The notes beneath the pieces were generated by a model. It had not been told where the DNA came from and did not search any database. It saw only the letters and a list, made by a program, of their open reading frames with translations. A DNA stretch of 48,712 nucleotides from a virus. The stretch lies in UHGV virus genome UHGV-1370921. The stretch is one strand, 5' to 3'. Position 1 is the stretch's first letter, and each line of letters starts with the position of its first letter. Below are positions 7,916 to 21,376 of this stretch, piece by piece. A program made the translations under genes and the position numbers.

Positions 7916-8203
7916 CACATACCCCGTTGAAACTCGTTCGGGGTACTTCATCGGGGTATCAAAAACTCTTTAGTTTTCTGTTACTTACTACTTATTACCC
8001 TTATACCCTTATAAAATAGTAATTAGTATAGTAGTAAGATAGTAAAAGAATGTATATAGACAATATACAAACGGTAATAAGAGGGAAGAGGGAATATAGC
8101 AGGAATGTACGGGGTTTTCGGTTATGCTCGTAAGCCTATGATTGTGAAAGCAAATTCGCCACCCCTATACCTGGGGTATTTTGGGGTAAAATGAGGTATT
8201 GAC
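7916..8203. repeat. 288-bp intergenic element copy A (hairpin + GGGGTA iterons + AT-rich core + promoter)
   Basis: About 90% identical to 21089-21376. Contains ACCCCGttgaaactcgttCGGGGT, CGGGGTA repeated at 11-bp spacing, an AT-rich TAGTA-repeat core, and ends at the TTGAC -35 box. Confidence 0.75.
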
Positions 8204-8227
8204 GAACGCGTCAGCTACTGCTACACT
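8199..8227 (+). promoter_or_regulatory. sigma70-like promoter TTGACGaacgCGTCAg-N-TACACT
   Basis: -35 at 8199-8204, 17-nt spacer, -10 at 8222-8227. RBS AGAGAGGA precedes the ATG at 8259. Confidence 0.55.
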
Positions 8228-8258
8228 AATTTTGTAAATTACAGAGAGGAATAACACC

Positions 8259-8657
8259 ATGTCATTTGCAGCTTATATTTTAAAAAAAATAAATTCTGTT
8301 CCAGAAGAGAGTGTCCCTCAAGATGTCGCACAGCCATCACAGAGACTGATACGAATTACAAAAAGTGGAAAACCAGATGGTCGAAGTCTGGCACGAGGGA
8401 AGCCCAAAACCCGGAGACGCGTATCACGTGGGGTAAGGTCGTATGAGCGTATCATCCTCCTTGACGCCCTTGAAAGAGCAAAACCAGGCGATGAATTCAC
8501 ATGGAACTGGAGAACGAAAGCAACATATTCGGACATTAAATTGCGAACTGCACAGTTAACATATGTATACAAAACCGCGTGGATATACGGACACAAGGTC
8601 TCACTTTCCGCCAGACCGGGATACATGGTGATTAAATATGTGGGCAGTAATGCATAA
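8259..8657 (+). CDS. hypothetical early protein
   Basis: 132-aa basic protein and first gene of a plus-strand island. Good RBS. Confidence 0.45.
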   Translation: MSFAAYILKKINSVPEESVPQDVAQPSQRLIRITKSGKPDGRSLARGKPKTRRRVSRGVRSYERIILLDALERAKPGDEFTWNWRTKATYSDIKLRTAQLTYVYKTAWIYGHKVSLSARPGYMVIKYVGSNA

Positions 8658-8736
8658 GTCCGGAACAGTTTTGTTCACAACGAAAGATGAATTTATCGCG
8701 CTTAACCGCGCACAACATGGCTGGAGAGTTGAAGAA

Positions 8737-9186
8737 ATGAGTGAAATGAACATTTATCTGTCACGTCCTGGTGCACGTATCCCAACGTATGCAACGTCAG
8801 GAAGCGCGTGCTTCGATATTTATGCCGTACTCGATGAACCAGTGCCAGTTTGCAACGGTGAGCCTGTAATCATTCCTACAGGGCTTAAATTTGATATACC
8901 AGTTGGGCATGCTTTGATGATTTACTCACGCAGTGGTCACGGATTTAACAGCGATGTCCGTCTGTCAAATTGTACCGGTGTCATCGACAGTGACTACACT
9001 GGTGAATTAATGGTTAAGTTGACGCAGGATGTTGACCATCATGAAGGTGTGTTCTGGGTTAATCACGGTGACCGGATTGCACAGGGGATGCTGATTCCAG
9101 TCGAACAAGTGACGTTTAAGAAAATCAATGAACCTCCCCAACAGAAAACTAACCGTCATGGTGGTTTTGGGAGTACCGGAAGTTAA
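8737..9186 (+). CDS. dut: dUTP diphosphatase
   Basis: Motifs SRSGHGF, GVIDSDYTGEL and GDRIAQ are visible. The long ORF begins at 8638 but the ATG at 8737 gives a canonical ~150-aa dUTPase, with GGAGAG RBS. Confidence 0.85.
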   Translation: MSEMNIYLSRPGARIPTYATSGSACFDIYAVLDEPVPVCNGEPVIIPTGLKFDIPVGHALMIYSRSGHGFNSDVRLSNCTGVIDSDYTGELMVKLTQDVDHHEGVFWVNHGDRIAQGMLIPVEQVTFKKINEPPQQKTNRHGGFGSTGS

Positions 9187-9287
9187 CTCACGATACCACC
9201 CTGGTGGAACGCTTGCTGTTTGGCACGGTGAGTGTTACAGTCTCCACACGGGCAACATTAAAGTTACGGATGTAGCGCCTTCACAGG

Positions 9288-10250
9288 TTGGTCCGCCCGG
9301 TATCATTTAACTCCACAGATACCGGATTCACAGAAATGGCCACACGCATTCCACAAGAAGTAAGAGAGAAACAAATCGCCGAACTTTGCGAGGGTACGGT
9401 TTATTCCTTTGTCAGGTGGGTCGGTAAGTTTAAGGGTGTCAGGTCAAAATTCATATACACATGCGAAAAGCACGGTGAACAAACTGGTAAAGTTGAACAT
9501 TTCATGAACGGTACCAGATGTCCGATGTGCGGCGTAAGTAAACGCATGTTCAGTCAAGAAGAAAGACAGAATCAATTCGAAAAAGAACTGCAAAACACTA
9601 TCTATAGTTTCGCCCAGTGGTCACATTACGACGGCAAGAATACAAGCAGAGTCGTTTTCAACTGTCAAAGACATGGGGAATGGGAGACGTCTGTCAGGTC
9701 ATTTGTTGGAGGTTCTCGATGTCCAAAATGTTCTAGAGAGGCATCATCAGAAAAACAAAGATATGACGTAGAGAAACGAACTGAGCAGATTGTTCAGATG
9801 TGTAATGATTCTGGGTACGCCTTCGAAGGCTGGTGTGAAGGTTACAATAACGCCCGTAGTAATTTCAACTGCAGATGTCCAAAGCATGGTGTATGGAAGG
9901 TTGAATTCTCCGCTTTTAAACACGGTACCCGTTGTCCAAGTTGTGCTAAGACAGGTTTTAATCCCGATAAACCCGCATGGCTATACTGCCTAATTTCAGA
10001 AGACAACTTGTTAAAAGTCGGTATCACCAACGATATTGAAACCAGAATTTCACAGTTAAGAACTTATACTCCGTTCAGTTTTGAAGTTTTGGAGACGTTT
10101 AAAAATGTTGATGGTAACTTAATTCGAGAATTGGAAAGACAAGTTCATTTACAATTTGAGAGTGCGAATCTGAAAGGGTTTCAGGGGTGTACCGAATGGT
10201 TGAAGTGGAACCCAAAGATTCCACTATGGTTCAGATTTTTAAACGGCTAA
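9288..10250 (+). CDS. homing endonuclease, T5orf172/GIY-YIG-like C-terminal domain with three CxxHG...CPxC zinc-ribbon repeats (HEG1)
   Basis: C-terminus [37 protein letters not shown]...[12 protein letters not shown]-terminal repeats of the form CEKHGEQ...GTRCPMCG. Paralogous to 27110-27853, 32891-33658 and 37960-38850. Confidence 0.7.
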
Positions 10251-10667
10251 AGCCCCCATTCCGATTTTCTTACGTAGTGAGTAGAACTCCTGTCCGAATA
10301 TAGTATAGGTGAGAAAATCGTTGTTAACTTCCATCATTTGTGGAACTCGATACGCAATTGATTCGTCCCCTACGGATTTTGAGGCAACGTTTAGTCTAGC
10401 TTCCGTGTTCGCATCTCCCCCCATACCGTCCGGGTAATACATAGATAGCCAGGCTGCTGCATAGAGAAACATTCCCACCATCTTGTTGGAATGACAGTCC
10501 GATTGATATTCCCCCCATCGACGAGAGCCAGTCGCAACATCCCCACGACAAAGCGCATATTGGAGTAATGCATCCGGGAATTTAACGGTATCCTCGAAAA
10601 TACCCATTCCGCCGGACCAGATGCGAAAATCTGCGATAACTTCAGTGGTGATATTCATATTACACAC
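10239..10667 (-). CDS. hypothetical head-tail connector region protein
   Basis: 142-aa ORF following the head completion gene. Converges on HEG1 with overlapping 3' ends. Confidence 0.35.
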
Positions 10668-10690
10668 TCACAGTCAATACGGAGACGGCT

Positions 10691-10740
10691 TGAAAACATA
10701 CCCCCGCCTCAACTCCGTGGTATCCGGGAGAGACGGGGGC
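10691..10740 (-). terminator. putative intrinsic terminator (10-bp stem with one G-U, then UAUGUUUUCA)
   Basis: On the minus RNA: CCCCCGUCUC...GAGGCGGGGG followed by a U-rich tract. Lies between genes 10768-11085 and 10239-10667. Confidence 0.4.
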
Positions 10741-10767
10741 CGGAAAAGTTATTTATACCTGTGTTAA

Positions 10768-11085
10768 TTAAGAGGCGGCTTTTACTGCCTCAATTTCTTG
10801 CTGAAGTCGTGACTTCTTCCAGCGCGCGTCGACTTTGATGCCCAGTTCTTCGGCTTCTGCACGAAGTCCATCGATACTCACATCCTCGACGTCCGATTCA
10901 GGGTTCTTCAGTTCGCCCGAAATGACAACCAGTTCACCTGCTTCCTGATATGCACTGACCAGGCTGTAAATTGCCGGAGTAACTTCGAACTCTTTCGAAT
11001 CACCTGGTGCCAGCATACGTTTCATCACATCTTCTTCACCCGGCATCATGAACGGGCGCGCGGAAATATTTTTTACAGTAATCAT
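10768..11085 (-). CDS. head-associated protein with C-terminal Rho_N/SAP-like motif
   Basis: 105 aa. The C-terminus IDGLRAEAEELGIKVDARWKKSRLQQEI resembles the Rho-N/SAP helix-extension-helix. Immediately follows the major capsid protein terminator. Confidence 0.4.
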   Translation of the reverse strand: MITVKNISARPFMMPGEEDVMKRMLAPGDSKEFEVTPAIYSLVSAYQEAGELVVISGELKNPESDVEDVSIDGLRAEAEELGIKVDARWKKSRLQQEIEAVKAAS

Positions 11086-11138
11086 AAAATCACCTTTAGT
11101 TGCAATACTTACCCGTTGTCATTCTACATCCTTGAACG

Positions 11139-11167
11139 AGTAAAGAAAAGCCCTCCGAAGAGGGCTT
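11139..11167 (-). terminator. rho-independent terminator directly after the major capsid gene
   Basis: Minus RNA AAGCCCUCuucgGAGGGCUU followed by UUCUUUACU. A classic partial terminator after a capsid gene. Confidence 0.55.
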
Positions 11168-11189
11168 GGGATGTCGCTGAGGGTAGGTA

Positions 11190-12224
11190 TTACAGCATGT
11201 CGAGGTAGATTGCACTCAGAGGATAGCGAATTTCAGTGCCCGAAATCTTATACTCTGCCGGTACAGTTACGGCCAGACCTTTATTCTGCGGTGCCAGCAT
11301 GCGGAACGGAATCGGCTTGGCAACACCCAGGTTGCGGTCGTTCTTCTCGTAAATGAGAACACGGTCTTTCGAACTGTTGGACACACCGCCCGCAGCCAGT
11401 TCCGCAGCGGTCAGCTGGTAACGAACCTGAATATCAATTTCCTGCCCGGTCATCAGGGTGAAGGAGTTATTGATTTTAAAATGCTCCATAACGGTACGGT
11501 CGGTATACCCAGTCATCAGCGTGCTGTTCATGCGTTTCCACAGGTCCGGGAATACGCGAATGGTATTCGGCAGGTGGAAGTTTTTGGACAGTTTGATGAT
11601 GTCGAACAGCGGGTCGTTGAGCATGTTGAACAGCTCCTGACCGGTGGCGGTGGTGTAGTCGACGGTCGCCTTAGTCACGGTCACATTGCCGTTATTGAAC
11701 AGACCAGCCATTCCCAGTTGTGAGTCACCGAAGTAAGCCACTTTCTGACTGTGTTCTTCATAGCCACGATATGCCAGCTGCTGCTGCATGGTGTCAATCG
11801 GCATATTCTGAGACGCAGTGGTGCGCAGCTCGTCGATGCTATAGTGACACTCGATGCCGCCGTAGTTCAGCGGTACAGTGTGGAGTTTTGCAGACTGAGC
11901 AACGCGTGGCAAGTCCATAGCGTTTGCGCCGATAAACCGGCCAACAGTCACTCCATCATAGCTCCGGTATTGCCAAGTCGTTGAAAACTCAGGAATGCCG
12001 GATACAACCGGGATGTCCTGCAGATAGGTGATATCCGCATACGGAGTTGCATAGATGGTCTGCTCAATCTGTGCCAGCTGAGAGATGTAGAACGCGATAC
12101 CACCGTCAGCATCACGGAATTCAGCCGGAACGTTGATAGCGTTCTGACCATCCAGATACTGTTTTACCCACGGGTTACCCGCGATAGTCTGTGCGTCAAG
12201 TACAACGCTGTTTAACTTATCCAT
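11190..12224 (-). CDS. major capsid protein
   Basis: 344 aa, positioned after the scaffold/protease and decoration genes and followed by a terminator. Size and position are typical. Confidence 0.6.
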   Translation of the reverse strand: MDKLNSVVLDAQTIAGNPWVKQYLDGQNAINVPAEFRDADGGIAFYISQLAQIEQTIYATPYADITYLQDIPVVSGIPEFSTTWQYRSYDGVTVGRFIGANAMDLPRVAQSAKLHTVPLNYGGIECHYSIDELRTTASQNMPIDTMQQQLAYRGYEEHSQKVAYFGDSQLGMAGLFNNGNVTVTKATVDYTTATGQELFNMLNDPLFDIIKLSKNFHLPNTIRVFPDLWKRMNSTLMTGYTDRTVMEHFKINNSFTLMTGQEIDIQVRYQLTAAELAAGGVSNSSKDRVLIYEKNDRNLGVAKPIPFRMLAPQNKGLAVTVPAEYKISGTEIRYPLSAIYLDML

Positions 12225-12226
12225 TA

Positions 12227-12715
12227 TTAACCCCCAACAACCAGAGACAGTTTAGCCAGACCACCGGCTGTCGCGGCAGTGAGGAATTTAGCGCCAGGAA
12301 TGGCAACCGACAGAGTTGCTGCGGAACCCTCTGTCTTAGCGAAATCGCCGGTCTGAGTTGCGCCAACACGCAGGAATGCGGCGTCACCAACGGCAACATC
12401 CTCCGCTACGGTTACCCAGATTACGCCAGCAGTGAGCACAGATGCCGGACGGTCAACCGGAGCACCGAAAGTTGCGCCGTCAGCGTATGAGCGGTTCAGT
12501 TCACGAACCAGTACGCCCACGAAGTCATTAGCTGTGGAGCTGGCAGTTGCAGCCTTAAAGCCTTTCTCGCCGCTACGTACAACACCTTTACCATATGCGA
12601 CGGTTGCGGTGTCATCGTTAATTTTGGAAACGATATTCGCTACTTGTCCGTCGGCGACCATCCCGGTAAAGGCTGCGTCGTGATTCAGACCGTAGCTGGT
12701 TGCAGTAATAGCCAT
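12227..12715 (-). CDS. head decoration-like protein
   Basis: 162-aa Ala/Gly/Thr-rich beta-type protein between the scaffold and the major capsid protein. Confidence 0.4.
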   Translation of the reverse strand: MAITATSYGLNHDAAFTGMVADGQVANIVSKINDDTATVAYGKGVVRSGEKGFKAATASSTANDFVGVLVRELNRSYADGATFGAPVDRPASVLTAGVIWVTVAEDVAVGDAAFLRVGATQTGDFAKTEGSAATLSVAIPGAKFLTAATAGGLAKLSLVVGG

Positions 12716-12726
12716 CTATGTCACCC

Positions 12727-13869
12727 TTATTTAAGTTTACCAGTCTGACGCAGCAGTGCTTCTTGTGCGCGGGACAGTACAGGTTTTGCGTCGGCTACCG
12801 GCTGTTTGATGTCTTTAGCGCCATCTTTAGCCAGTTGCTCAAGCTGTGAGTCTACCACAGGTTTCACCGGTTCTTCCACAGCCATGTCGAAAGCGGCTTC
12901 AACATAGGCGGCAGATTTTTCAGCCCAGTCAACAGACGGACGTTTAACAGCAAGAGCGGCACGTTTGATTACAACCGGGTCCATGCTGTCACAGGTGAAT
13001 TCATCGCCAGCAACTTTACGCGCTGAGGTAGTAACACGTGCAATTGCTTCCACGCGTGCTTTCAGGGCTTCGTCGCTGCATTTGGTAGTCAGGTCGGCAA
13101 CCTGTTCCATTGCTGCGTCGAGTTGAGCCTGTACGGTTTCTTTGGCGGCTTCGGCGTCACTGACACGCTGTTCCAAGCGTTTGAACGCGTCTACTACCGC
13201 AGCATCCGCCACATCAACTTTTAGCCCGGTGTCAGTGGTGATTTGATACATGGGTTTTTTCTCCATATTATCGAAGATACGCGCCATTGCACCCGCACGA
13301 GCACGGTCAACAATTGCAACGTGGTTAATTTTAATCTGAGTCTGTCGGAAGTCGTATGGTTCACCTTCCGGCGTTGTCCCTGGTGTATCATCATACACCG
13401 CCGTGTAACCCGCTGACAACTCACACTTGCCGGTTTCGACAGCCTTAATCGCGTCTTTATCCTTAATAACCATATCCACAATGACGAAATCGCCGTCCTG
13501 ACGACCGACACTCGTCACAACACCGACAGAAGTATTGCGGTACGTGGAAGCATTGACAAGCGTAGGAGGATGGTTATTCGTGACATCTGCGCCGAGATAG
13601 CTCTGAAGTGATTCATCGTTAAACACTTCTTCGGCGGGACGGTACACACGGATAATGTCATTCGGTGCGCGACCTTTTAACCCCAGTTCCGAAGCGAGAT
13701 ATTCCTGAATACCAGTGCGAGCTGCTTTACCCGGCACACGCAGAAATCCCTCATCCGTGTAAACACGTTGGGAATTCAGTGCGAAACTTTTACGGTCATT
13801 GTGTGTTACGGTGATTTGCATGTTGACGAGTCCGTCAGAATATGCCATAGTGATAATCGTTAAACACAT
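12727..13869 (-). CDS. prohead protease / scaffolding fusion protein
   Basis: 380 aa. The N-terminal half is globular (GFLRVPGKAARTGIQEY...). The C-terminal half is a charged coiled coil (AEAAKETVQAQLDAAMEQVADL...), typical of a scaffold. The start codon is ambiguous (13869, 13848 or 13821). Confidence 0.5.
   Translation of the reverse strand: MCLTIITMAYSDGLVNMQITVTHNDRKSFALNSQRVYTDEGFLRVPGKAARTGIQEYLASELGLKGRAPNDIIRVYRPAEEVFNDESLQSYLGADVTNNHPPTLVNASTYRNTSVGVVTSVGRQDGDFVIVDMVIKDKDAIKAVETGKCELSAGYTAVYDDTPGTTPEGEPYDFRQTQIKINHVAIVDRARAGAMARIFDNMEKKPMYQITTDTGLKVDVADAAVVDAFKRLEQRVSDAEAAKETVQAQLDAAMEQVADLTTKCSDEALKARVEAIARVTTSARKVAGDEFTCDSMDPVVIKRAALAVKRPSVDWAEKSAAYVEAAFDMAVEEPVKPVVDSQLEQLAKDGAKDIKQPVADAKPVLSRAQEALLRQTGKLK
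13822..13850 (+). promoter_or_regulatory. sigma70-like promoter TTGACGagtcCGTCAg-N-CATAGT, embedded in the 5' end of the antisense scaffold gene
   Basis: -35 at 13822-13827, 17-nt spacer, -10 at 13845-13850. AGGAG RBS, then ATG at 13898. Confidence 0.45.
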
Positions 13870-13897
13870 AATACATATATTTCACAGGAGATACAAC

Positions 13898-14125
13898 ATG
13901 ACCGACATGGTCAATCACCCATCACACTATACACAAGGTAGTATCGAGTGTATTGATGCTATTAAGGCTGCCACCGTCGGTAAAACCGGTATCGAGGCGG
14001 TATGCGTGGCAAATGTCATTAAATATCTGTGGCGCTACGAAGAGAAGAATGGCCCGGAAGATGTGAAAAAGGCCCGTTGGTATCTGGAGCGTCTGATTAA
14101 TGAACTGTCGGAGAGCGACAAATGA
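13898..14125 (+). CDS. DUF3310-like small phage protein
   Basis: 75 aa, MTDMVNHPSHYTQGSIECIDAIKAA...KYLWRYEEKNGPEDVKKARWYLERL. Strong RBS. Confidence 0.45.
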   Translation: MTDMVNHPSHYTQGSIECIDAIKAATVGKTGIEAVCVANVIKYLWRYEEKNGPEDVKKARWYLERLINELSESDK

Positions 14126-14253
14126 ACACGCCATACGCATACGAAGTGACAACCAACCGTGGTACGACATATCTGGTCCGCGCGGGCAGTGTGGCGCATA
14201 ACAACGCTGTTATGTTTGGGTATCAACTAAAACCGTTGTACGAGGGTGAGTGA
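14122..14253 (+). CDS. small hypothetical protein (43 aa)
   Basis: ATGA overlap with the upstream gene. Translationally coupled. Confidence 0.3.
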   Translation: MNTPYAYEVTTNRGTTYLVRAGSVAHNNAVMFGYQLKPLYEGE

Positions 14254-14450
14254 TTATGACAACCATCCCACGCTACCCAACCGGGACACTTGTGAAGTCG
14301 TTCCCCAACGGTGTCGTTACGGGTGTTGTTGCAAACGTAATAACTGATGAGCCACCGCGCTACTATGTACAGTGGGACGATGGTACTTACAGCTGTCACG
14401 CACAGCGCGATTTGAAACGAGTGGGGACATTGTATGGCAGACTGGATTAA
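14250..14450 (+). CDS. small hypothetical protein
   Basis: 66-aa ORF with a GTG/ATG start and a GAGGGTGAG RBS. Confidence 0.4.
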   Translation: MIMTTIPRYPTGTLVKSFPNGVVTGVVANVITDEPPRYYVQWDDGTYSCHAQRDLKRVGTLYGRLD

Positions 14451-14637
14451 GTGTAGTGAGCGGATGCCACCACTTGGGTGGTTCATCTGTTATAACACCG
14501 ATATTTGTGAAGTCGCCGAGCACTTCTATGACCCAGTGAAAAACACGTTCACATACACAAATTATGAGGGTGAGCAGGTAGTTGACGCCGAATATATCAC
14601 ACACTGGCAACGATTGCCCGAGCCGCCGCAGGAGTGA
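14434..14637 (+). CDS. small hypothetical protein
   Basis: 67-aa ORF overlapping the upstream gene. Confidence 0.4.
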   Translation: MADWIKCSERMPPLGWFICYNTDICEVAEHFYDPVKNTFTYTNYEGEQVVDAEYITHWQRLPEPPQE

Positions 14638-14643: not shown

Positions 14644-14673
14644 TTGACGAGTTCGTCAGGGATGACGTATAAT
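14644..14673 (+). promoter_or_regulatory. sigma70-like promoter TTGACGagttCGTCAg-N-TATAAT
   Basis: -35 at 14644-14649, 18-nt spacer, consensus TATAAT at 14668-14673. Followed by RBS GAGGGTGAG and ATG at 14706. Confidence 0.55.
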
Positions 14674-14705
14674 CAGTTCATCAACAGCAGAGAGGGTGAG
14701 ACAAA

Positions 14706-14858
14706 ATGAATAACACATTACTTCCAGGCTACAACCGTCCCGTATCAGAGGCGCATATTGCCGATAAAGAACTGTTAAAGGCCGCACAACAGCTTGCACG
14801 CAAGCATGAAGATTGGGCGCTCGCTAACGCTGCATTACGTGAGGCGTATGGAAAATGA
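14706..14858 (+). CDS. small hypothetical protein (50 aa)
   Basis: MNNTLLPGYNRPVSEAHIADKELLKAAQQLARKHEDWALANAALREAYGK. Good RBS. Confidence 0.4.
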   Translation: MNNTLLPGYNRPVSEAHIADKELLKAAQQLARKHEDWALANAALREAYGK

Positions 14859-15052
14859 ACTGTAAACCAATCAAGGCGGTAATGCTCCGCAACAATGACA
14901 AATTTATCGATGTGGACGGTGTTATCACCGTGACAAACTTCAAAATGAACTTCCTCGAAGATATTGTGACATTTACCGCTATCAAAGAGGATGGTTCAGT
15001 ATCTCAGCGCTGGGTCGAGATGAATCAACTTGTTAATAAGGTGGTGGGCTAA
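14855..15052 (+). CDS. small hypothetical protein
   Basis: 65-aa ORF with ATGA overlap. Confidence 0.4.
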   Translation: MNCKPIKAVMLRNNDKFIDVDGVITVTNFKMNFLEDIVTFTAIKEDGSVSQRWVEMNQLVNKVVG

Positions 15053-15231
15053 TGGACATTATTAAAGGTGTACTGATTATCCTGCTTACAGGGTGGGTAA
15101 TTATAGTAACAATCAACACGCTACCTATGGAACTGGAATACAAGTGGCAGGCATGGACAATTGTTGCATTTGGTCCGGTTGCCGTATTTGCCGGACTGTG
15201 GGAGGTATGTGTGAGGGTGTTCAAGAAATGA
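15052..15231 (+). CDS. small membrane protein (2 predicted TM helices, 59 aa)
   Basis: MDIIKGVLIILLTGWVIIVTINTLP...AFGPVAVFAGLWEV. Start overlaps the upstream stop. Confidence 0.35.
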   Translation: MDIIKGVLIILLTGWVIIVTINTLPMELEYKWQAWTIVAFGPVAVFAGLWEVCVRVFKK

Positions 15232-15385
15232 CTGTAATCATGTGGTTTCTGTGGCGTCGTTGGCAGTTTAAAAGGTATGCCGGAAAAGACATCAGTTTGA
15301 CAGCGTGTCACAACAATAATCTATGCGGTTGCCGCAAACACCCTATTATCTATAACGATATGTGCCGCATTGTGAGAGGTGGGAA

Positions 15386-15580
15386 ATGAGTAGAGAGGAA
15401 AGATTACGAAAAGTACTTCACGATAATAAAGACCATTTCGACATTGATGAAGACGGTCGACTTATCCCTAAACCGCCCGAACCACCAAAAAGCGGAATGG
15501 AGTACAATCCCGAACCACCCGCATTAAACATTGTGATAGGGCTACTCGTTCTTCTGTGGATAATTTACGTATTTACTTAG
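15386..15580 (+). CDS. small C-terminally membrane-anchored protein
   Basis: 64 aa with C-terminal IVIGLLVLLWIIYVFT. RBS GAGGTGGG. Confidence 0.35.
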   Translation: MSREERLRKVLHDNKDHFDIDEDGRLIPKPPEPPKSGMEYNPEPPALNIVIGLLVLLWIIYVFT

Positions 15581-16331
15581 CCTTATACCGCTCCACTGCT
15601 GCCGCTGTAACTGGTCTCGCCACACAGCGGCAATTTATTGGCTGACCTGGAAATGTTGGCACACCATCCACAACTGGCAAATCATCCCAACGAAACACAC
15701 CTTCACCGAATCCCACATCGCGTTTGGCAACTTCAACATGACTGTGACGTACCCGCTCATCCTGTGACGTCACCCATTTGAAATACTCAATACCACTGTT
15801 CGTCTGACGAATGCGGTTCATGTCGCCCTGTATCTTGCTCGTCTGGTCCCGGGCGATAAGTTTAGCGCGACGTTCCGTGATACCAAATTGCTTAACAAGT
15901 GCCTGCTCAATGTAGCTGGGGCGCATACCGTTACGCATGTTGGTCATGACGATGTTCTGCACCTGCTCCAGATACTGGGCCGGGATAGACTGAATGAGTT
16001 TAGCGTTCTGATACGATGCGGCGCTCAGATATTCCTGCAGCTGTGTATCACCCCCGTACAGGTTGATAGCGAATGAGCGGGCGTTATCCTTTGCCGCAGT
16101 CTGTACAAACTGTGACGCGATGGTTTCGGCCTGACGACGAGCAAACGCGCCGAGCCACCGTGTAAGCAACTGGTTAATCGCCGAGGTGATAGTGTCGCTC
16201 CAGCCGTCGGCGGTGTACTCCGGCGCAAGCTGTTTCACCAGTGGTACGATGTTGGCGTCCACATCCTCACGAACAAGCCGTGCAACCTGTTTCAGCTGGC
16301 GATAATAATTTAACTCTGTTTGTCGTGACAT
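15573..16331 (-). CDS. head morphogenesis protein, phage Mu F / SPP1 gp7-like
   Basis: 252 aa with the conserved C-terminal ...GQPINCRCVARP motif typical of Mu-F-like minor head proteins. Lies in the head module. Confidence 0.65.
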   Translation of the reverse strand: MSRQTELNYYRQLKQVARLVREDVDANIVPLVKQLAPEYTADGWSDTITSAINQLLTRWLGAFARRQAETIASQFVQTAAKDNARSFAINLYGGDTQLQEYLSAASYQNAKLIQSIPAQYLEQVQNIVMTNMRNGMRPSYIEQALVKQFGITERRAKLIARDQTSKIQGDMNRIRQTNSGIEYFKWVTSQDERVRHSHVEVAKRDVGFGEGVFRWDDLPVVDGVPTFPGQPINCRCVARPVTAAAVERYKAK

Positions 16332-16333
16332 GC

Positions 16334-16362
16334 TTGACGACCTCGTCAGTATGGTGTAGAGT
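16334..16362 (+). promoter_or_regulatory. sigma70-like promoter TTGACGacctCGTCAg-N-TAGAGT, abutting the divergent MuF-like start codon
   Basis: -35 at 16334-16339 begins 3 nt from the minus-strand ATG at 16329-16331. 17-nt spacer. -10 at 16357-16362. Confidence 0.5.
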
Positions 16363-16399
16363 GTACGTGTTAGTTAAATATTATCACAGGAGAAGAGAG

Positions 16400-16636
16400 A
16401 TGACACGTAAGCTCATATACACGCAAGATAGCGTTGGTGAATATACCATTGCGGACGAAACAGAAAAATGGGTAACGGTTGTTGGTCAAGTAGAATCCGA
16501 ATCTGACGCCAGGCTGTTCTGCGCCGCTCCGGAACTGCTGGAAGCGTTACGGGATTTGCAAGCTCGCGCATGTATTTACGTCAACACTTCGAAAGCTAAA
16601 GCAGCCATCGCAAAAGCAACAGGAGAGACAAAATGA
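16400..16636 (+). CDS. hypothetical protein
   Basis: 78 aa. RBS AGGAGAAGAGAG upstream of the ATG at 16400. Confidence 0.4.
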   Translation: MTRKLIYTQDSVGEYTIADETEKWVTVVGQVESESDARLFCAAPELLEALRDLQARACIYVNTSKAKAAIAKATGETK

Positions 16637-17130
16637 CATTACTTGAACTATTGCGTCAGGAATTACCGAAGCGTGGCGGTTGGCCGGAGGGTGCGGTAAA
16701 AATTCATCAAGACTACGACGGTGAAACTTGGGCGTGGTTAAATCATGATAGTGTAGAGCCGCTATTCACGCTGGGTCAGGTGGCAACAAACGCAAGGAAA
16801 TTTGGTGAGTATGAGAAATGTGAAAACATGGTCACCCGTGCCCAATACGAATCCGCACTCGCCACATCGCAAAATCCAGCATGGAACGGCGATGGCCTGC
16901 CCCCAGTTGGCGTTGAGTGTGAATATTCATGGGCCGGTGAGCCGTGGGCCAGTGGCGTAATTCGTTACATCAGCAAGCATACAATAATCGTTGAAATACA
17001 GGCTGATTCCACTGGAGATACTGAGTGCGCCTACCACCCGACAGATATCAAGTTCCGCCCACTCCGCACCGAAGCGGAACGCGCGATTTTTTTAACTTCA
17101 GCATTATCACAGGTGGCACAGCATGACTAA
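16633..17130 (+). CDS. hypothetical protein
   Basis: 165-aa ORF with ATGA overlap. Confidence 0.4.
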   Translation: MTLLELLRQELPKRGGWPEGAVKIHQDYDGETWAWLNHDSVEPLFTLGQVATNARKFGEYEKCENMVTRAQYESALATSQNPAWNGDGLPPVGVECEYSWAGEPWASGVIRYISKHTIIVEIQADSTGDTECAYHPTDIKFRPLRTEAERAIFLTSALSQVAQHD

Positions 17131-17743
17131 ACCAAAGCAAAAAGAAACTGAAACAGACAGCGAGTATGCTCTTAGAATTTCAGAATGGAAAGAGATGAGA
17201 AAAGAGTACAAGAGAAAGTGGAATGAGCAGAATCAATCACATACTTCCCAATACAACAAGAAATGGCAATCCGAGAACGTAGAAAAAGTTTCACGATATA
17301 GAGAAGAGTATTACAAACAAAACAAACACGTCATTATTGAAAGGGTGATTGATTGGCAAAGAAAAAACCCCAAGAAGTATGCTGATAAATCAAAAAGGCA
17401 TTATCTTTCCAACAAGGATAAGTTCGCAACCAGAGTGGTCAAAAGAAGAGCGAACTTAACGCAGGCCTCAATCGGTAAAGATGTGGAAAAAGTCTATTCG
17501 CAACTTTACCGATACGCGAAGCTACTTGGCGGTAATCTCGAAGTAGACCACATCATTCCGTTGCGCGGCGTGGATGTCAGAGGGTTGCATACCTCAGAAA
17601 ATCTCTGTCTATTACCGAGAGAAATAAATCGTTCGAAAGGTAATAAATTCGACCAAGAAGCATACTTCTACTTTTTCAAAAGATACCCGAGATGTACCGC
17701 TTCGAGACTGTACGCGAGGTACATCTCGGGTAGGTTAGGATAG
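17123..17743 (+). CDS. HNH endonuclease
   Basis: EVDHIIPLRGVDVRGLHTSENLCLLPREINRSKGNKF is an HNH motif. The N-terminus is Lys-rich. Located between the portal and MuF-like genes of the packaging/head module. Confidence 0.75.
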   Translation: MTKPKQKETETDSEYALRISEWKEMRKEYKRKWNEQNQSHTSQYNKKWQSENVEKVSRYREEYYKQNKHVIIERVIDWQRKNPKKYADKSKRHYLSNKDKFATRVVKRRANLTQASIGKDVEKVYSQLYRYAKLLGGNLEVDHIIPLRGVDVRGLHTSENLCLLPREINRSKGNKFDQEAYFYFFKRYPRCTASRLYARYISGRLG

Positions 17744-19147
17744 TTTTGCCATTATCTCATCATGAGACAACCCATCAGTCGCGTACTGGTTATAACGTAT
17801 CCAGAATGCGTCCTGTTGTTCCGTGAGTTTCGGTTCGTCATCGGGCGGAGACGCGATGTAATCCAACTCAACTGAAGCTTGTTTATCTATCTCACCATCT
17901 TCAAACTGATATTCTTCAGATGATTCGAGATTGCGCATGATTTGTGACGGCTTCACTATCCCCTCGGCAAGATACAGCATATCCTTATCAGCGCGGATTT
18001 TGGCGGCCTGTGCGATCTGTAATTCGTTAGGTTGAGCGAGTGGTCGCCACTCATAGTTAAAGTCGTCAGGCCAGTAACCCAGCGCGCTACGTACCAGCAC
18101 CTCATCAAGCTGACGCAACCCCGGGTCAACCTGCGTTAACTGTTTAGAACGGATGGAGTTGTTATAGTTGTTCATGTCCCCTTCACCCGTGGCGTTTAAA
18201 CCTTTGGCTGAAGTACCGAACAGACGAGTAACAGGAATGTCAGCCGCACCACTAATCCACGTCATGAACGTCTCAAGCACTGGTGCAACACCGCCCAGGT
18301 CGAGCGTCTTGCGCTCATACGATTCGTCACCGTCCAGCAGGGCCATCTGCACCAGTGATTTCATCTGACTGAACAGGGTGTAACGCGACACAATTGCATC
18401 GTCCTGGTCACTGGCTAACTCATCGGACAACCCTTCACGTTTGACCACATCGACGTTCGCTTCCTGCATCAGTTCCGCGATACCGTCCTTCGAGGCAACC
18501 ATGTCCATGATGTCATCAAGGCACACGCGTAACTCACTGTCACCCCATCCCTGAGTCTGGACCATCTGGCGACGAGGGATACGCTTACCACTAAAACGCG
18601 CAAAATGGGTCCAGTGGATTTGTTGCCCGCCACCGGTGATGGTGTAATACTCCGGCATCATGTAGTTAGGTGCCAGAATGTCCCAGGTGTTCATAGTGAG
18701 CGGTGACATATCGTGACGGTCAAACACGATACAACGCTTCAAATCACCTTTGCGAATACGGCGCACGTCGAGCGGCTTTGACAGGTCCTGACCGGTCAAC
18801 ATGAGAATACCACCGCCACCGTACAGACGCGCCCATGTGACAGCCTCCTGCACGATGGCAGGTATCATCAGTCGGTCCTCTTCGATACGGATGTCATCAG
18901 CTTCCTTGCACTTGATGGTGCGCCACTCACGGCACATGTCTTCGGCGGGGATTTCCACAATCTGACGAGCCAGCCAGTTAGTCTGGTAAGCTGCGTCAAG
19001 TTGTTGCCAGTTGGACAGCGCGGCATACTGGAACGCGTTGTGAGAGCGTTTCGCTTTCCACGTTCCAAGACCAGATACGACGTTTACCAGCCCGTCGGCT
19101 GTTGTAGCTGGCATGAGATGAAGGTTTGTTTTAGCAGCCTTAGCCAT
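17735..19147 (-). CDS. portal protein
   Basis: 470 aa, immediately downstream of the large terminase. Acidic C-terminus. Size and position are typical. Confidence 0.6.
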   Translation of the reverse strand: MAKAAKTNLHLMPATTADGLVNVVSGLGTWKAKRSHNAFQYAALSNWQQLDAAYQTNWLARQIVEIPAEDMCREWRTIKCKEADDIRIEEDRLMIPAIVQEAVTWARLYGGGGILMLTGQDLSKPLDVRRIRKGDLKRCIVFDRHDMSPLTMNTWDILAPNYMMPEYYTITGGGQQIHWTHFARFSGKRIPRRQMVQTQGWGDSELRVCLDDIMDMVASKDGIAELMQEANVDVVKREGLSDELASDQDDAIVSRYTLFSQMKSLVQMALLDGDESYERKTLDLGGVAPVLETFMTWISGAADIPVTRLFGTSAKGLNATGEGDMNNYNNSIRSKQLTQVDPGLRQLDEVLVRSALGYWPDDFNYEWRPLAQPNELQIAQAAKIRADKDMLYLAEGIVKPSQIMRNLESSEEYQFEDGEIDKQASVELDYIASPPDDEPKLTEQQDAFWIRYNQYATDGLSHDEIMAKLS

Positions 19148-19149
19148 GT

Positions 19150-20598
19150 TTATAAAATCTCCGAAACGGTTGCTTTGCCATTGTGGAGCATTTGACTAAT
19201 TGCATCACACATTGGGTCAATCTGGTCATCGTGAGCGTGTGTATCATCGGCAGTGAACGCTTCACACTCCGTAACGAAGTCATGAACCCATGGGGCATCT
19301 TCGGGTATCTTAACATATCCTGACTCAATGTAACCCTGTACATCCATCACGCGGGTTAATTTATTTGCCGCCGGTCCACGTGGTATTTCCCTCACGGGTA
19401 TCACGGGCTTAATTTTGCGGCGAATCTTCTGGATAAGTTCTGTGCCGGATGATTTATCTTCAACAGCCATGTAACGCAAACGACCGTTTTTGTCATTGCG
19501 GTGCTTGTTCCAGAAGTCGGGAATTTTTACCTCAAGCTCATACGCTTCGAACTTGTCACGCATGACGTCGAGGAGATACAGATACCCATCCTCACCCAGT
19601 CCCCACAGTTCGGCGACCTGATAGTCGTTATGCTCTTTGGCTTTCTGCGCCGTATCGATAAACACCGCTCTGTATTTCAGCTTTGGCACAACGGTGTAAC
19701 GTCCGAACCATGACCCCTTCAGAATGCCGCCCCCGAGCGGTGAGGGACGTTGCTGCATCTGACCGGAGAACATGTACGAGTTTTTCTTCTGCATCGCTTT
19801 GAGGGCTTCCAGAGAGTGTTTCTGGGGCCACAATGCACGCTCCGTCGGTAAACCCTCGTCCACAATGGCAGGAAGCACCAGGTGACGGAAATTATACTCC
19901 TCGTCCTTCAGCAGTGTGCCGCAGAAGTCCTCTTCGTGGAGACGCTGCATGATAACGATGCAGGGAGTCTTCGTGGAGTTAAAACGTGATTTGATGGTTT
20001 CATCCCAGCGACGGTTAACACCGTTACGTTTTGGGTCAGAATACGCGTCATCTGGTTTTAACGGGTCATCGATGATAATCGCACCGCCAAAGCCGTTACC
20101 GTTCTCAAAGTCGTCAAGTTTACCAGCACCGAAACCAGTGATAGGACCACCCGCAGCCGTCGCATAGAATACACCACCCTGGTCAGTGCCCCACGCTTTC
20201 TTCGAATCCTTGTTCGCCTTAATGGTCACATGAGGCCAGAGTTTTTGAAACTCTTCGGACTTCAAAACTGATTTAATTGATTCGGAGTTATCCAGCGCGA
20301 GAATATCAGCGTACGACAGATGAATAAATTCACACTTTGGATTTTTAACGTAACACCATGCGGAAAATAATTTAACAGCCAGTTCGGTTTTTGAATAACG
20401 CGGCGGCATGTTAATTATTAAATGAGTGGTGCGACCGTAAAATACATCCATCAATGCATCACAAATTACATGATGGTGGTCACTGAATACAAATTTAGTC
20501 CCTTTTAAAACTTTAAAGAAGAAACGAGCGAATAAAGTAAAATCTTCCTCAAGTGCGAGGCGCAGTAATTTTAATTCTTTTGGGGAATTAAAATTCAT
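19150..20598 (-). CDS. terL: terminase large subunit
   Basis: 482 aa. The N-terminal ATPase region has PRYSKTELAVKLF. The C-terminal nuclease region carries Asp-rich motifs. 11-nt overlap with the small subunit gene. Confidence 0.8.
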   Translation of the reverse strand: MNFNSPKELKLLRLALEEDFTLFARFFFKVLKGTKFVFSDHHHVICDALMDVFYGRTTHLIINMPPRYSKTELAVKLFSAWCYVKNPKCEFIHLSYADILALDNSESIKSVLKSEEFQKLWPHVTIKANKDSKKAWGTDQGGVFYATAAGGPITGFGAGKLDDFENGNGFGGAIIIDDPLKPDDAYSDPKRNGVNRRWDETIKSRFNSTKTPCIVIMQRLHEEDFCGTLLKDEEYNFRHLVLPAIVDEGLPTERALWPQKHSLEALKAMQKKNSYMFSGQMQQRPSPLGGGILKGSWFGRYTVVPKLKYRAVFIDTAQKAKEHNDYQVAELWGLGEDGYLYLLDVMRDKFEAYELEVKIPDFWNKHRNDKNGRLRYMAVEDKSSGTELIQKIRRKIKPVIPVREIPRGPAANKLTRVMDVQGYIESGYVKIPEDAPWVHDFVTECEAFTADDTHAHDDQIDPMCDAISQMLHNGKATVSEIL

Positions 20599-21040
20599 CG
20601 TTAAACGCCTTTTTAAATATTTTCACATCTTCGGCGGTAATGTTGATATTCGTATTCACATTATCCAGACCGCCGGACAACTGAACCAGTTGCTTATCCA
20701 GTCCCATCAATTTCGCTTTACCGAGCACTGCTGCCACAGCTGCGGATGATTGCGGCGTCTCGGCAGACAGTGCGACGTTTTTAATTTCTTCCAGTTCTGC
20801 AACGAGCGAATCAACCGTCACATTGTGGCGCTTCTGGTGAACCTCGCGCAACTGTCGCAGTCTTACCGAAATATTATCCTTGTTGAGCATTTCAGATGCT
20901 TTCACGGCGATGGTGTTCTGCCCCATGTTCTTCGCATCATACGAGCGACGATATGCCTCGCTTGCGTTACCCGTTTCCACAAACGCGCGGCAAAATGCTT
21001 CCTGTTTCTCAGTCAGAGGTCTTGTCATGATAGCCCCCAC
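20588..21040 (-). CDS. terS: terminase small subunit
   Basis: 150 aa. LTEKQEAFCRAFVETGNASEAYRRSYDAK is the HTH region typical of small terminases. First gene of the late head operon. Confidence 0.65.
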   Translation of the reverse strand: MGAIMTRPLTEKQEAFCRAFVETGNASEAYRRSYDAKNMGQNTIAVKASEMLNKDNISVRLRQLREVHQKRHNVTVDSLVAELEEIKNVALSAETPQSSAAVAAVLGKAKLMGLDKQLVQLSGGLDNVNTNINITAEDVKIFKKAFNDEF

Positions 21041-21088
21041 GCTATTGTCTCTAATGCCACGATTCTACCATGACTGACCCGTCATTGC

Positions 21089-21376
21089 CACATACCCCGT
21101 TAAAACTCGTTCGGGGTACTTCATCGGGGTATGAAAAACTCTTTACCTTTCAATACTATACTACTTATTACCCTTATACCCTTATAAAATAGTAATTAGT
21201 ATAGTAGTAAGATAGTAAAAGAATGTATATATACAGCATACAAACAGTAATAAAAGAGAAGGGAGAATATAGCAAGAATGTACGGGGTTTTCGGTTATGC
21301 GCGTAAACCTATGATTGTGAAAGTAAATTTGCCACCCCGATAGCTCGGGTATTTCGGGGTAAAATGAGGTATTGAC
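21089..21376. repeat. 288-bp intergenic element copy B
   Basis: About 90% identical to 7916-8203, with the same hairpin, GGGGTA iterons and AT-rich core. It likewise ends at a TTGAC -35 box and lies upstream of a late operon (the terminase operon). Confidence 0.75.

Follow-up and report, generated by a model that had tools for sequence, protein, structure and literature searches.

A conserved pair of 289-bp multi-site elements upstream of the two apparent late promoters of a Jedunavirus-type phage genome

The window analysed here, the whole 48,712-nucleotide sequence UHGV-1370921, is a complete Jedunavirus-type myophage genome, that of a Klebsiella phage. It carries two ungapped direct repeats of 289 nt (Table 1), identical at 262 of 289 positions by our own count (90.7%; 91% according to the repeat finder). 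Sigma-70-like promoters with a TG extension point outward at both edges of both copies. A sequence-only reading of this DNA had described a direct-repeat pair of about 90% identity, each copy upstream of a minus-strand late operon and beside a plus-strand promoter, and the present analysis bears out all of these points: the operons begin with the Neck1 and small terminase subunit (TerS) genes, and the plus-strand -35 hexamers are TTGACG at 8199 and TTGACA at 21372.

Table 1. Window coordinates of the two element copies, their parts, and the adjoining promoters and genes
Feature	Position	Strand	Description
Repeat copy 1	7915..8203	.	Divergent intergenic region, neck/tail operon (minus) versus accessory-gene island (plus)
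Left arm, copy 1	7920..7958	.	TACCCCG 7920-7926 inverted, N12, CGGGGTA 7939-7945, N6, CGGGGTA 7952-7958
Core, copy 1	7996..8019	.	Inverted TACCC 7996-8000 and 8004-8008, then TATAAAATAG
AT-rich variable spacer, copy 1	8020..8105	.	Purine-rich tract at its end
Middle degenerate direct pair, copy 1	8110..8124	+	CGGGGT-N3-CGGTTA (8110, 8119)
Right arm, copy 1	8160..8198	.	CACCCC 8160-8165 inverted, TGGGGTA 8172-8178, TGGGGTA 8182-8188, GAGGTA 8193-8198
Repeat copy 2	21088..21376	.	289 bp, between terminase operon (minus) and gene 21438-22025 (plus)
Left arm, copy 2	21093..21131	.	TACCCCG 21093-21099, CGGGGTA 21112-21118, CGGGGTA 21125-21131
Core, copy 2	21169..21192	.	TACCC 21169-21173 and 21177-21181, then TATAAAATAG
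AT-rich spacer, copy 2	21193..21278	.	
Middle site pair, copy 2	21283..21297	+	
Right arm, copy 2	21333..21371	.	CACCCC 21333, TCGGGTA 21345-21351, CGGGGTA 21355-21361, GAGGTA 21366-21371
Neck/tail late promoter	7889..7917	-	TGGATA-17-(TG)GATAAT; -35-like hexamer overlaps left edge of copy 1
Terminase/head late promoter	21062..21091	-	GTGGCA-18-(TG)TAGAAT
Rightward promoter, copy 1	8199..8227	+	TTGACG-17-(TG)TACACT
Rightward promoter, copy 2	21372..21400	+	TTGACA-17-(TG)AACAAT; without palindrome
Tail-completion/Neck1 gene	7362..7865	-	First of tail unit
Terminase small subunit (TerS) gene	20588..21040	-	First of packaging/head unit
Candidate factor 1	21438..22025	+	195 aa, three Cys4 modules, long coiled coil; C-terminal module almost invariant
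Candidate factor 2	24393..26750	-	Primase-helicase: NrS-1-type prim-pol and DUF5906 SF3 helicase, PriRep-like
Candidate factor 3	26777..27094	-	105 aa, TetR_N helix-turn-helix only

Eleven GGGTA-type sites occupy identical offsets in the two copies and follow a single grammar: a left arm (- N12 + N6 +), two inverted core sites, an AT-rich spacer, two direct sites and a right arm. The core block is the deepest-conserved part of the element and is found in all clades, and the spacer is conserved in composition only, differing among genomes in length and sequence while retaining a low G+C content. Nowhere is the genome richer in A+T than at the centres of the two copies, with a G+C of 0.23 over the 100 bp at 7957-8056 and of 0.22, the genome minimum, at 21134-21233, against 0.479 genome-wide. 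The middle pair, which reads CGGGGTATTCGGGTA in clade 2, was at first taken for the start of a micro-ORF, a view since replaced by that of a degenerate site pair.

The GGGTA/TACCC pentamer occurs 111 times in 48.7 kb, so that 0.66 are expected per 289 bp; each copy holds seven exact sites (P about 6e-6). Elsewhere in the genome, no 120-bp window contains four or more, and no other iteron-like cluster was found. None of the 27 differences between the copies falls within the seven exact pentamers, where 3.3 would be expected. An assembly duplication was rejected, as 27 differences separate the copies and 71 independent phage records carry the pair.

In its details, the sequence-only reading requires revision. 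Its iterons one helical turn apart are inexact, the actual spacings being 13, 10 and 11 bp: the left pair, given as 11 bp apart, is 13 bp from start to start, and the right-hand sites are present but spaced by 10 bp rather than 11, with the degenerate GAGGTA following 11 bp on. The reported hairpin exists, but its inner inverted repeat is 7 bp (TACCCCG/CGGGGTA), and it is the second site, CGGGGTAT, that forms the partner of the 8-bp arm ATACCCCG. The right pair reads TGGGGTA twice in copy 1, and TCGGGTA and CGGGGTA in copy 2. Four sites per copy had been overlooked, in copy 1 the inverted TACCC at 7996 and 8004 and the degenerate direct CGGGGT at 8110 and CGGTTA at 8119.

On the late-operon side, the proximal CGGGGTA (7926-7920 in copy 1, 21099-21093 in copy 2) ends 25 nt before the -10 hexamer of the neck/tail and the terminase/head late promoter, respectively. 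The promoter-proximal site is centred near -41, and the promoters combine an extended -10 with a weak -35. The composite GGGTA-N21-24-TGnKAnnnT (4 matches versus 0.7 expected) is restricted in this genome to the two late promoters and one intragenic match. No sigma-70-like minus-strand promoter was found before the head-morphogenesis or protease genes, and the late units consequently appear to be just two, each headed by one copy. At the opposite edge of copy 1, the terminal GAGGTA abuts the -35 of the rightward promoter, which lies within TTGACGAACGCGTCA, a palindrome belonging to a promoter/operator class found genome-wide.

Comparison with relatives revealed two copies in 71 of 71 related GenBank phages, in every case one before terS and the other before the neck/tail-completion gene. 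Both positions and their orientation are kept in Jedunavirus, in Peatvirus PEAT2 and in a second clade (clade 2) with identities of about 45% for Neck1, about 48% for MCP and 45-64% for the primase, and further metagenomic relatives show the same grammar upstream of terS. Across these genomes the sites are conserved and the hairpin loops and spacers variable. Copy 2 lacks the right half in PEAT2, 051106 and 066185, which retain the left arm and core beside the late promoter, and at least one complete copy is present in every genome examined. In clade 1, gene conversion homogenises the two copies. This late-promoter element layout is previously undescribed.

The distance from the proximal site to the -10 is likewise maintained. 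It measures 25 nt in clade-1 copy 1 (TGTGATAAT), clade-1 copy 2 (TGGTAAAAT/TAGAAT) and clade-2 copy 1 (TGGTATTAT), 26 nt in L036, and 26-27 nt, judged by eye, in L111 and L183. Clade-2 copy 2 has a distance of either 26 or 36-37 nt (about one helical turn extra), and its -10, GACAAT without a TG extension, follows a good -35 (TTGACT/TTGACC). The sequences between site and -10 are unrelated, and no fewer than four unrelated promoter sequences keep the 25-27 nt distance.

Three phage genes encode candidate trans factors (Table 1). The Cys4/coiled-coil gene divergently adjoins copy 2 in most clades, the classic layout of a regulator next to its target, and its product is a plausible candidate regulator; no such protein was found beside copy 2 in clade 2, and a fold search returned coiled-coil matches only. 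In the primase-helicase, the primase part matches SaPI5 PriRep (7OLA), and the fold matches of the C-terminal model are mostly winged-helix domains, including MCM8, ORC and Cdt1, although the resemblance is weak. The 105-aa TetR_N protein is more likely to bind the TTGACG-N4-CGTCA palindromes than the GGGTA sites.

We interpret each 289-bp copy as a multi-site control region upstream of one of only two late promoters, a reading that we consider about evenly balanced between right and wrong. The two units under such control would be terminase-portal-head and neck-tail-baseplate. A protein that binds DNA sequence-specifically, and is probably encoded by the phage, would recognise the pentamer GGGTA and fill about 11 sites per copy; the proximal site, facing the late promoter from near -41, could place a class-II-type activator in contact with RNA polymerase where the promoter has an extended -10 and a poor -35. 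The remaining sites and the bendable AT-rich spacer may support cooperative assembly of a higher-order complex, potentially producing a sharp late switch, and in clade 1, where the last right-arm site adjoins the -35 of the rightward promoter, this complex might extend to that promoter as well. Protein binding at the sites, activation (as opposed to repression or anti-silencing), late timing and any assignment of a binder are inferred.

Several features fit late-promoter control poorly. Eleven sites in 289 bp, with opposed pairs on either side of an AT-rich centre, exceed what a simple activator needs and constitute an iteron-origin grammar. Clade-2 copy 2 keeps its entire right half without a divergent promoter, so control of a rightward promoter does not explain that half, and the good -35 hexamers of clade-2 late promoters (TTGTCA, TTGACT) make the need for an activator less obvious. 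The leading alternative is that of replication origins, alone or combined with promoter control, which we regard as possible but rather unlikely. The SF3 primase-helicase or another initiator would bind the iterons flanking the spacer, melt it and load itself; the copies would be two origins, as are oriL and oriR of SPP1, or one origin with a cis-acting partner. If the two roles are combined, the initiator, once bound, would also gate the adjoining late promoter, as T antigen, the SV40 initiator protein, does at the SV40 origin/regulatory region. In keeping with an origin, 10-12 penta- or heptamer sites per copy form inverted (-)(-) and direct (+)(+) pairs around a 50-90-bp spacer whose G+C stays at 0.16-0.26 despite varying sequence and length, and these spacers are the genome's AT-richest stretches in its only iteron-like clusters. 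The grammar matches that of the SaPI ori (PMC9371898), the phage encodes the PriRep-like primase with its predominantly winged-helix C-terminal matches, and SPP1 offers a precedent of two origins about 13 kb apart (PMC6316719). In the distant contig L114 a mirror-symmetric element lies 1.5 kb away from the primase gene, and the retention of a complete copy by every genome points the same way. Yet a pure origin leaves unexplained why the copies head late operons in one orientation at a fixed distance from the -10; they lie 3 kb and 16 kb from the primase gene, which adjoins the origin in SaPIs, and right-hand site clusters are absent from some copy-2 elements. The cumulative GC-skew minimum, at 31652, falls in the early divergent promoter region and in neither copy, a weak argument as skew follows transcription here. 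The sequence-only reading preferred an origin and named a late-promoter/activator module as its alternative; that alternative is the better supported, because the copies head both late units, keep position and orientation, and preserve the 25-27 nt distance, while the origin retains support.

The other explanations are weaker. A host factor might bind the array (NarL/NarP at the sites, or the silencing protein H-NS on its AT tract), letting host physiology gate the late genes, which we think improbable: TACCCCG agrees at 6 of 7 positions with TACYYMT, which we take to be the NarL/NarP heptamer, none of the phage's proteins could be assigned as the binder, and the motif is constant among phages of different hosts, but the N12 inverted and N0-6 direct arrangements are unlike the typical 7-2-7 NarL layout, and the motif is also retained in environmental relatives. 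More improbable still is a pac site, at which the small terminase would bind GGGTA arrays beside its own gene, much as repeated hexamers flank the cleavage region of P1 pac. Copy 2 does lie directly upstream of terS in every clade; the unrelated contig L140 has a TACCCCG/CGGGGTA/GGGGGTA/AGGGGTA cluster and a promoter right before a terS of the same PHROG family; and the relative IME346 is reported to lack fixed termini (PMC9007800), in agreement with headful packaging. This weak reading nevertheless gives no role to the second full copy, equally long conserved, upstream of the neck gene, the sites are unchanged where TerS belongs to a different family (L114) or has no detectable similarity (clade 2), and the site-to-promoter spacing suggests RNA polymerase rather than terminase. 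Least credible, and largely refuted, is a transcribed element, whether a structured leader or small RNA (for instance an antitermination signal of the put/nut type, of which both late operons would have a copy) or a micro-peptide. Same-orientation copies at operon heads do recall nutL/nutR and putL/putR, and clade 1 has a frame of 21-33 codons, starting at the ATG at 8106, with several apparently synonymous substitutions. Against the RNA, the late promoters lie between element and genes, downstream of the element, so that late transcripts would exclude it; no Rfam family match was obtained, folding z-scores are -1.27 and -0.45, hairpin loops vary, and one arm is broken in PEAT2 copy 1. The peptide fares no better: its length varies from 20 to 33 aa (7 aa in L036), and the clade-2 block encodes a different peptide while retaining the DNA motif CGGGGT-N3-CGGKTA. 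Structured RNA, micro-ORF, pac and assembly artefact all proved weak readings when tested.

Known systems share parts of this design. In the SaPI ori, 6-12 penta- or hexanucleotide iterons surround an AT-rich centre, two or more on either side and oppositely oriented, and are bound by the C-terminal winged helix of the SF3 Rep/PriRep (PMC9371898). Short iterons, an AT-rich centre with opposed flanks and a genome-encoded prim-pol/SF3 helicase of the same general type recur here; however, the SaPI ori is single and immediately downstream of rep, whereas the two copies here are distant from the primase gene and each joined to a late promoter, and ori binding by the helicase C-terminal domain is only putative here, with a weakly supported winged-helix model. 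The two SPP1 origins, separated by about 13 kb, both combine direct repeats with an AT-rich DNA-unwinding element, and moron genes adjoin the one that lies in the late region (PMC6316719). The resemblance extends to two similar elements at about that distance in a genome of roughly 44-49 kb, with repeats, an AT-rich region and one element inside the late region adjoining moron genes. Unlike here, SPP1 uses the unrelated initiator gp38 and DnaB-type helicase gp40, its oriL lies inside gene 38, and no fixed relation to late promoters is described.

Class-II activator promoters, such as those of lambda cI at PRM and of CRP/FNR at -41.5, share with the late promoters here a site centred near -41, an extended -10, in clade 1 a weak -35, and a site distance conserved or shifted by about one helical turn, but they have one or two dyad sites rather than 11 non-dyad pentamer sites in 289 bp. 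In phage P4, iterons are likewise split between two separate cis elements, ori and crr, to which a primase/SF3-helicase binds through a protein that ends in a C-terminal winged helix; the iterons are TGTTCACC octamers, crr is itself a 120-bp tandem duplication, and neither element is known to be linked to a late promoter. Functional analogies may also be drawn with the phi29 p4/p6 early-late switch and the SV40 origin/regulatory region; in the latter, GAGGC pentamers and an AT tract serve as origin for T antigen, an SF3 helicase, and regulate both the early and the late promoters. The phi29 and SV40 regions would resemble the present element, by functional analogy only, as compact multi-site nucleoprotein regions between differently timed transcription units, although each of those regions is single-copy.

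The window, the complete genome of a Jedunavirus-type Klebsiella myophage, carries two direct, ungapped copies of a 289-bp element, located with a repeat finder and identical at 262 of 289 positions. Each copy holds 11 GGGTA-type sites at offsets identical between the two. Exact pentamers number 7 per copy against 0.66 expected (P about 6e-6), and no other 120-bp window of the whole genome contains four or more GGGTA/TACCC. No 100-bp stretches of the genome are richer in A+T than the centres of the two copies (G+C 0.22-0.23 versus 0.479 overall). An earlier sequence-only reading had described this repeat pair and its main motifs, and these are present where it placed them, although several details required correction. 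The left CGGGGTA pair, given as 11 bp apart, measures 13 bp from start to start; the right pair, given the same spacing, measures 10 bp, with a degenerate GAGGTA 11 bp further on. The reported hairpin exists, but its perfect inner repeat is 7 bp (TACCCCG/CGGGGTA), and the "AT-rich core" is indeed AT-rich but also includes TACCC twice in inverted orientation (7996, 8004). Absent from that description is another degenerate pair of direct sites, at 8110-8124. An assembly duplication, which the same reading had named as grounds for discarding the element, was ruled out by the 27 differences between the copies and by the presence of the pair in 71 independent genomes.

Both edges of both copies bear outward-facing sigma-70-like promoters with a TG extension, and the repeat boundaries on both sides are -35 hexamers. 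No comparable minus-strand promoter precedes the head-morphogenesis and protease genes; from this, the virion genes appear to be organised as two late units, one running from terS to the head-tail connectors and the other from Neck1 through the tail and baseplate, each headed by one copy. Within the proposed head unit, the major capsid gene is immediately followed by a strong terminator-like hairpin (AAGCCCTC-TTCG-GAGGGCTT, then a T-run) that may weaken transcription of the connector genes beyond it. Gene content to the right of copy 1 varies: the position of the plus-strand island of the window is taken by two hypothetical genes in KpV52 (L002, 13135-13984) and by a DNA methyltransferase gene in PEAT2 (L003, 33096-33764), so that this boundary behaves as a hotspot or exchange point for accessory genes.

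Coordinates of the element copies and associated features in the window
Feature	Position	Strand	Description
Element copy 1	7915-8203		heads neck/tail unit
Element copy 2	21088-21376		heads terminase/head unit
Tail-completion/Neck1 gene	7362-7865	minus	one side of copy 1
Plus-strand island	8259-10250	plus	across copy 1; hypothetical gene, dUTPase, HNH endonuclease
terS	20588-21040	minus	one side of copy 2
Cys4 protein gene (candidate 1)	21438-22025	plus	across copy 2 from terS; 195 aa, three Cys4 modules and a long coiled coil
Primase gene (candidate 2)	24393-26750		C-terminal domain
TetR_N protein gene (candidate 3)	26777-27094		105 aa, TetR_N domain only
Late promoter, neck/tail unit	7917..7889	minus	TGGATA-17-TG-GATAAT
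Late promoter, terminase/head unit	21091..21062	minus	GTGGCA-18-TG-TAGAAT
Rightward promoter at copy 1	8199..8227	plus	TTGACG-17-TACACT
Rightward promoter at copy 2	21372..21400	plus	TTGACA-17-AACAAT
Terminator-like hairpin	11148-11167	minus	after major capsid gene
TTGACG palindromes	4318, 4340, 8199, 13823, 14644, 16334, 24346, 27098, 28647, 31617, 31674, 34695, 37806, 48408		TTGACG-N4-CGTCA(A)
phrog_681/HNH-type endonuclease genes	9288-10250, 27110-27853, 32891-33658, 37960-38850		four paralogues
DNA polymerase gene, split	36440-37963, 38840-39424		interrupted by endonuclease ORF (phrog_681)
Helicase ORF	28481-31153		890 aa

Two copies of the element occur in all 71 related phage records. 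Some records seemed to show it in three places; a third copy was ruled out, since these records are linearised inside copy 2. Pectobacterium phage PEAT2, although of another genus, carries the element in the same two places; it is absent from more than 40 TerS relatives that are more distant. Scanning IMG/VR with a pattern (TACCCCG-N10-14-CGGGGTA-N4-9-GGGTA) recovered a second, far diverged clade of phages of 43-50 kb (clade 2; clade 1 comprises the window and its Jedunavirus-type relatives), with protein identities of about 45% for Neck1, about 48% for the MCP, 45-64% for the primase and about 82% for TerL. This clade, too, has one copy upstream of Neck1 and another upstream of the terminase operon, with orientation unchanged. 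Additional relatives reached through a neighbouring gene show the identical grammar upstream of terS.

This grammar opens with a left arm (TACCCCG, N12 or longer in some relatives, CGGGGTA, N5-6, CGGGGTA), followed by a variable stretch of about 40 nt and a core of two inverted sites leading into TATAAAATA or TAATAAATA; three inverted sites are found in the distant contig L114, and one site is degenerate in some relatives. Then come an AT-rich spacer of 50-90 nt, constant in composition and variable in sequence and length, a purine-rich tract, two direct sites (CGGGGTATTCGGGTA in clade 2, CGGGGTTTTCGGTTA in clade 1) and a right arm that repeats the left-arm pattern. Across the clades the sites are conserved while loops and spacers vary, and no other non-coding DNA of the Jedunavirus group and its relatives is as conserved as the element. 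In genome 032061 every site has changed jointly to (A)GGGTA, and PEAT2 copy 1 has a degenerate hairpin arm. From these variable loops, the joint site shift and the degenerate arm, we infer that the arms behave as protein sites, and we rejected a hairpin or cruciform as the functional unit.

Other repeats were noted as well. In clade-2 copy-1 loci (L105, L126, L139, L144), the interval from the element to the TTGACG palindromic promoter contains several GTGAC-N14-16-GGTCAC-type palindromes, at about 20-190 nt to the right of the right arm, and clade-2 copy-2 loci carry runs of AAATAAATTA-like repeats in their place. Arrays of CGGGGTAA(C/T)-type direct repeats occur in unrelated, mostly G+C-rich viral contigs (L106, L122, L130, L116/L146, L138, L109/L150), with ACGGGGTAAT three times in L130 and CGGGGTAAC three to four times in L106 and L122; some of these may be chance matches to the pattern.

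Several further readings of the element were considered and rejected. Copy 2 lies upstream of terS in every clade, and an unrelated contig has a similar site cluster in front of its terS, as might be expected of a pac site in a headful-packaging phage; against this reading stand TerS family replacement, the site-promoter spacing and the presence in all clades of two full copies, the second at the neck gene, rather than one packaging-initiation site per genome. A micro-ORF at 8106 (MYGVFGYARK...) has a coding look in clade 1, with third-position changes, but its length ranges over 20-33 aa and falls to 7 aa in L036, and the peptide read from the unchanged DNA motif in clade 2 is a different one. 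A structured cis-acting or small RNA, including a leader of the nut/put kind, was discounted on the basis of no Rfam match, no tRNA and folding z-scores of -1.27 and -0.45.

The most likely function, which we hold with about even confidence, is that of a multi-site upstream control region switching on the two late promoters. The sequence-only reading had placed a duplicated late-promoter or activator-binding module second to an origin; the location at late-operon heads and the fixed site-promoter distance lead us to favour it. The proximal CGGGGTA, the site nearest the late promoter, lies exactly 25 nt from the -10 hexamer in clade-1 copy 1 (TGTGATAAT), clade-1 copy 2 (TGGTAAAAT or TGGTAGAAT) and clade-2 copy 1 (TGGTATTAT), and 26 nt from it in L036; in clade-2 copy 2 the distance is 26 or 36-37 nt, the latter about one helical turn more. 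The sequences between proximal site and -10 are unrelated among these contexts. In two further relatives with rearranged upstream sites, read by eye, the promoter-facing proximal GGGTA is 26-27 nt from TGGTATCAT. A distance of 25-26 nt centres the proximal site near -41, a helically phased position abutting or overlapping the -35, as at an activator-dependent promoter. Both late promoters of the window combine a sub-optimal -35 with a sigma-70 -10, and those of clade 2 have better -35 hexamers (TTGTCA, TTGACT). The composite GGGTA-N21-24-TGnKAnnnT gives 4 matches in the window versus 0.7 expected, confined to the two late promoters and one intragenic match, and no other operon start of the window has the same site cluster. 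To the right in clade-1 copies, the rightward promoter has its -35 directly adjacent to the final site. The proximal site would thus occupy a class-II-activator-like position, and the remaining sites would support cooperative assembly. No transcriptome was found for this phage group. In clade 2 (e.g. L126 10227-10272, L105, L144), the neck-operon -10, TATTAT, ends 7 nt before the Neck1 ATG without a Shine-Dalgarno sequence, which suggests that this late mRNA may be leaderless or near-leaderless.

A replication origin, alone or combined with promoter control, is a possible but clearly less probable function. The iterons and AT-rich stretch that led the sequence-only reading to call the element origin-like are present, with the cluster of short repeated sites that an iteron-type origin requires also found in clade 2 (10-12 per 300 bp). 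Site pairs of opposite orientation, (-)(-) in the core and (+)(+) in the middle, flank an AT-rich spacer conserved in composition alone (G+C 0.16-0.26), an arrangement also expected of SaPI/P4-like origins; SaPI origins have such an iteron grammar, bound through the C-terminal winged helix of SF3 Rep/PriRep helicases (PMC9371898). The "primase" of the window combines an NrS-1-type prim-pol helix-bundle domain with a DUF5906 SF3 helicase domain and matches NrS-1 primase and SaPI5 PriRep (7OLA) in the PDB. [quoted passage not shown] Moreover, clade-2 copy 2 sits in a tandem order of early operon, terminator, whole element and late promoter, so a divergent promoter cannot explain its right half, and in L114 divergent operons are separated by a mirror-symmetric element, at a distance of 1.5 kb from the primase gene. 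Against a pure origin, both copies are invariably at late-operon heads in one orientation, and the proximal site keeps its distance from the promoter. A SaPI/P4-like origin would lie immediately downstream of or inside its initiator gene, whereas the primase gene is 3 kb and 16 kb from the copies, and the 240-bp gap downstream of it (24155-24392) contains a promoter palindrome and no iterons. The cumulative GC-skew minimum falls elsewhere, at 31652, but is weak evidence because skew here tracks the direction of transcription. A more speculative proposal, to which we give a rather low probability, is that the element serves both as an origin and as a switch for late transcription: by binding the GGGTA pentamers and melting the AT-rich spacer, the SF3 primase-helicase would start replication, and it would also activate the late promoter from about -41.

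At the -35 of the tail promoter, GTATCCACA (7911-7919) matches 8 of 9 positions of the DnaA-box consensus TTATCCACA and is kept at copy 1 in clade 1 and PEAT2; its copy-2 counterpart, ATTGCCACA (21084-21092), matches 6 of 9. The DNA polymerase gene contains the 8-mer TTCACGAA three times in about 200 bp (37051-37376).

Three proteins of the window are candidates for binding the element. The C-terminal module of the Cys4 protein is almost invariant, and its gene adjoins copy 2 in clade 1, PEAT2, L036, L041, L165 and L181-185; L114 has a one-module version beside the element; no such protein was detected next to copy 2 of clade 2. A fold search with it returned coiled-coil matches alone. The second candidate is the C-terminal domain of the primase. 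The third carries the sole DNA-binding domain, a TetR_N helix-turn-helix, detected in Pfam scans of 30 ORFs, mostly small and unannotated, and is more plausibly a binder of the TTGACG-N4-CGTCA palindromes. These 15-16-bp palindromes, whose left half is a -35 hexamer, recur at about 14 positions, most of them operon starts (27 strand-matches allowing one mismatch at most, versus 1.5 expected), and are present in clade 2 too. They look like a genome-wide promoter/operator class for early or moron genes.

Comparison of the copies revealed different modes of evolution in the two clades. In clade 1, copies within a genome are at least as similar to each other (1611E-K2-1, 100%; 034683_17, 94%; JD001, 92%; window, 91%) as orthologous copies are between genomes (72-94%), which indicates gene conversion; the window phage encodes a Gp2.5-like annealing protein and exonucleases. 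Clade-2 copies are position-specific, and the features still common to both reflect selection, not homogenisation. The right half has been lost from some copy-2 elements (PEAT2, 051106, 066185) and the left arm replaced in some copy-1 elements. In the genomes examined, the core and at least one adjacent site are always retained beside the late promoter, and every genome has at least one complete copy.

Elsewhere in the window, the split of the DNA polymerase gene resembles a homing-endonuclease or intron-type insertion, and the four endonuclease paralogues account for repeat family D2 returned by the repeat finder. The helicase ORF is longer than the 556-aa protein of KpV52 and may represent an insertion or fusion: its helicase match spans residues 337-872, with a resemblance to a terminase-large-subunit-type ATPase over residues 30-394.

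Jedunaviruses and related phages have been isolated widely for therapeutic use against Klebsiella. The literature searched, on Jedunavirus repeats and promoters and on PEAT2, yielded neither a description of the element nor an account of gene-expression timing or replication start sites in these phages; the KpV52 GenBank record annotates merely two predicted promoters inside it. Marking the heads of both late units, the element offers an obvious handle on expression timing and replication start, and it supplies defined mutable sites, probes for finding the regulator and the three candidate proteins. Two practical consequences follow from its duplication. Many metagenomic contigs (L084, L085, L087, L088, L091, L100-L102, L029, L033, L035) end inside or beside the element because the 289-bp repeat breaks short-read assemblies. 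The repeat also recombines, with gene conversion observed here, and engineering of these phages calls for care, since the head module would be lost if the direct copies recombined.

The element is related to known kinds of regulatory DNA, namely activator arrays and iteron origins. Its inverted and direct site pairs around an AT-rich spacer match the published description of SaPI origins (PMC9371898). Should origin and promoter functions prove to be combined, virion-gene expression would be tied directly to occupancy by the initiator and to replication at two loci, a new phage route for coupling late transcription to replication. The element would then be the phage equivalent of the polyomavirus origin/regulatory region, present by duplication at each late operon.
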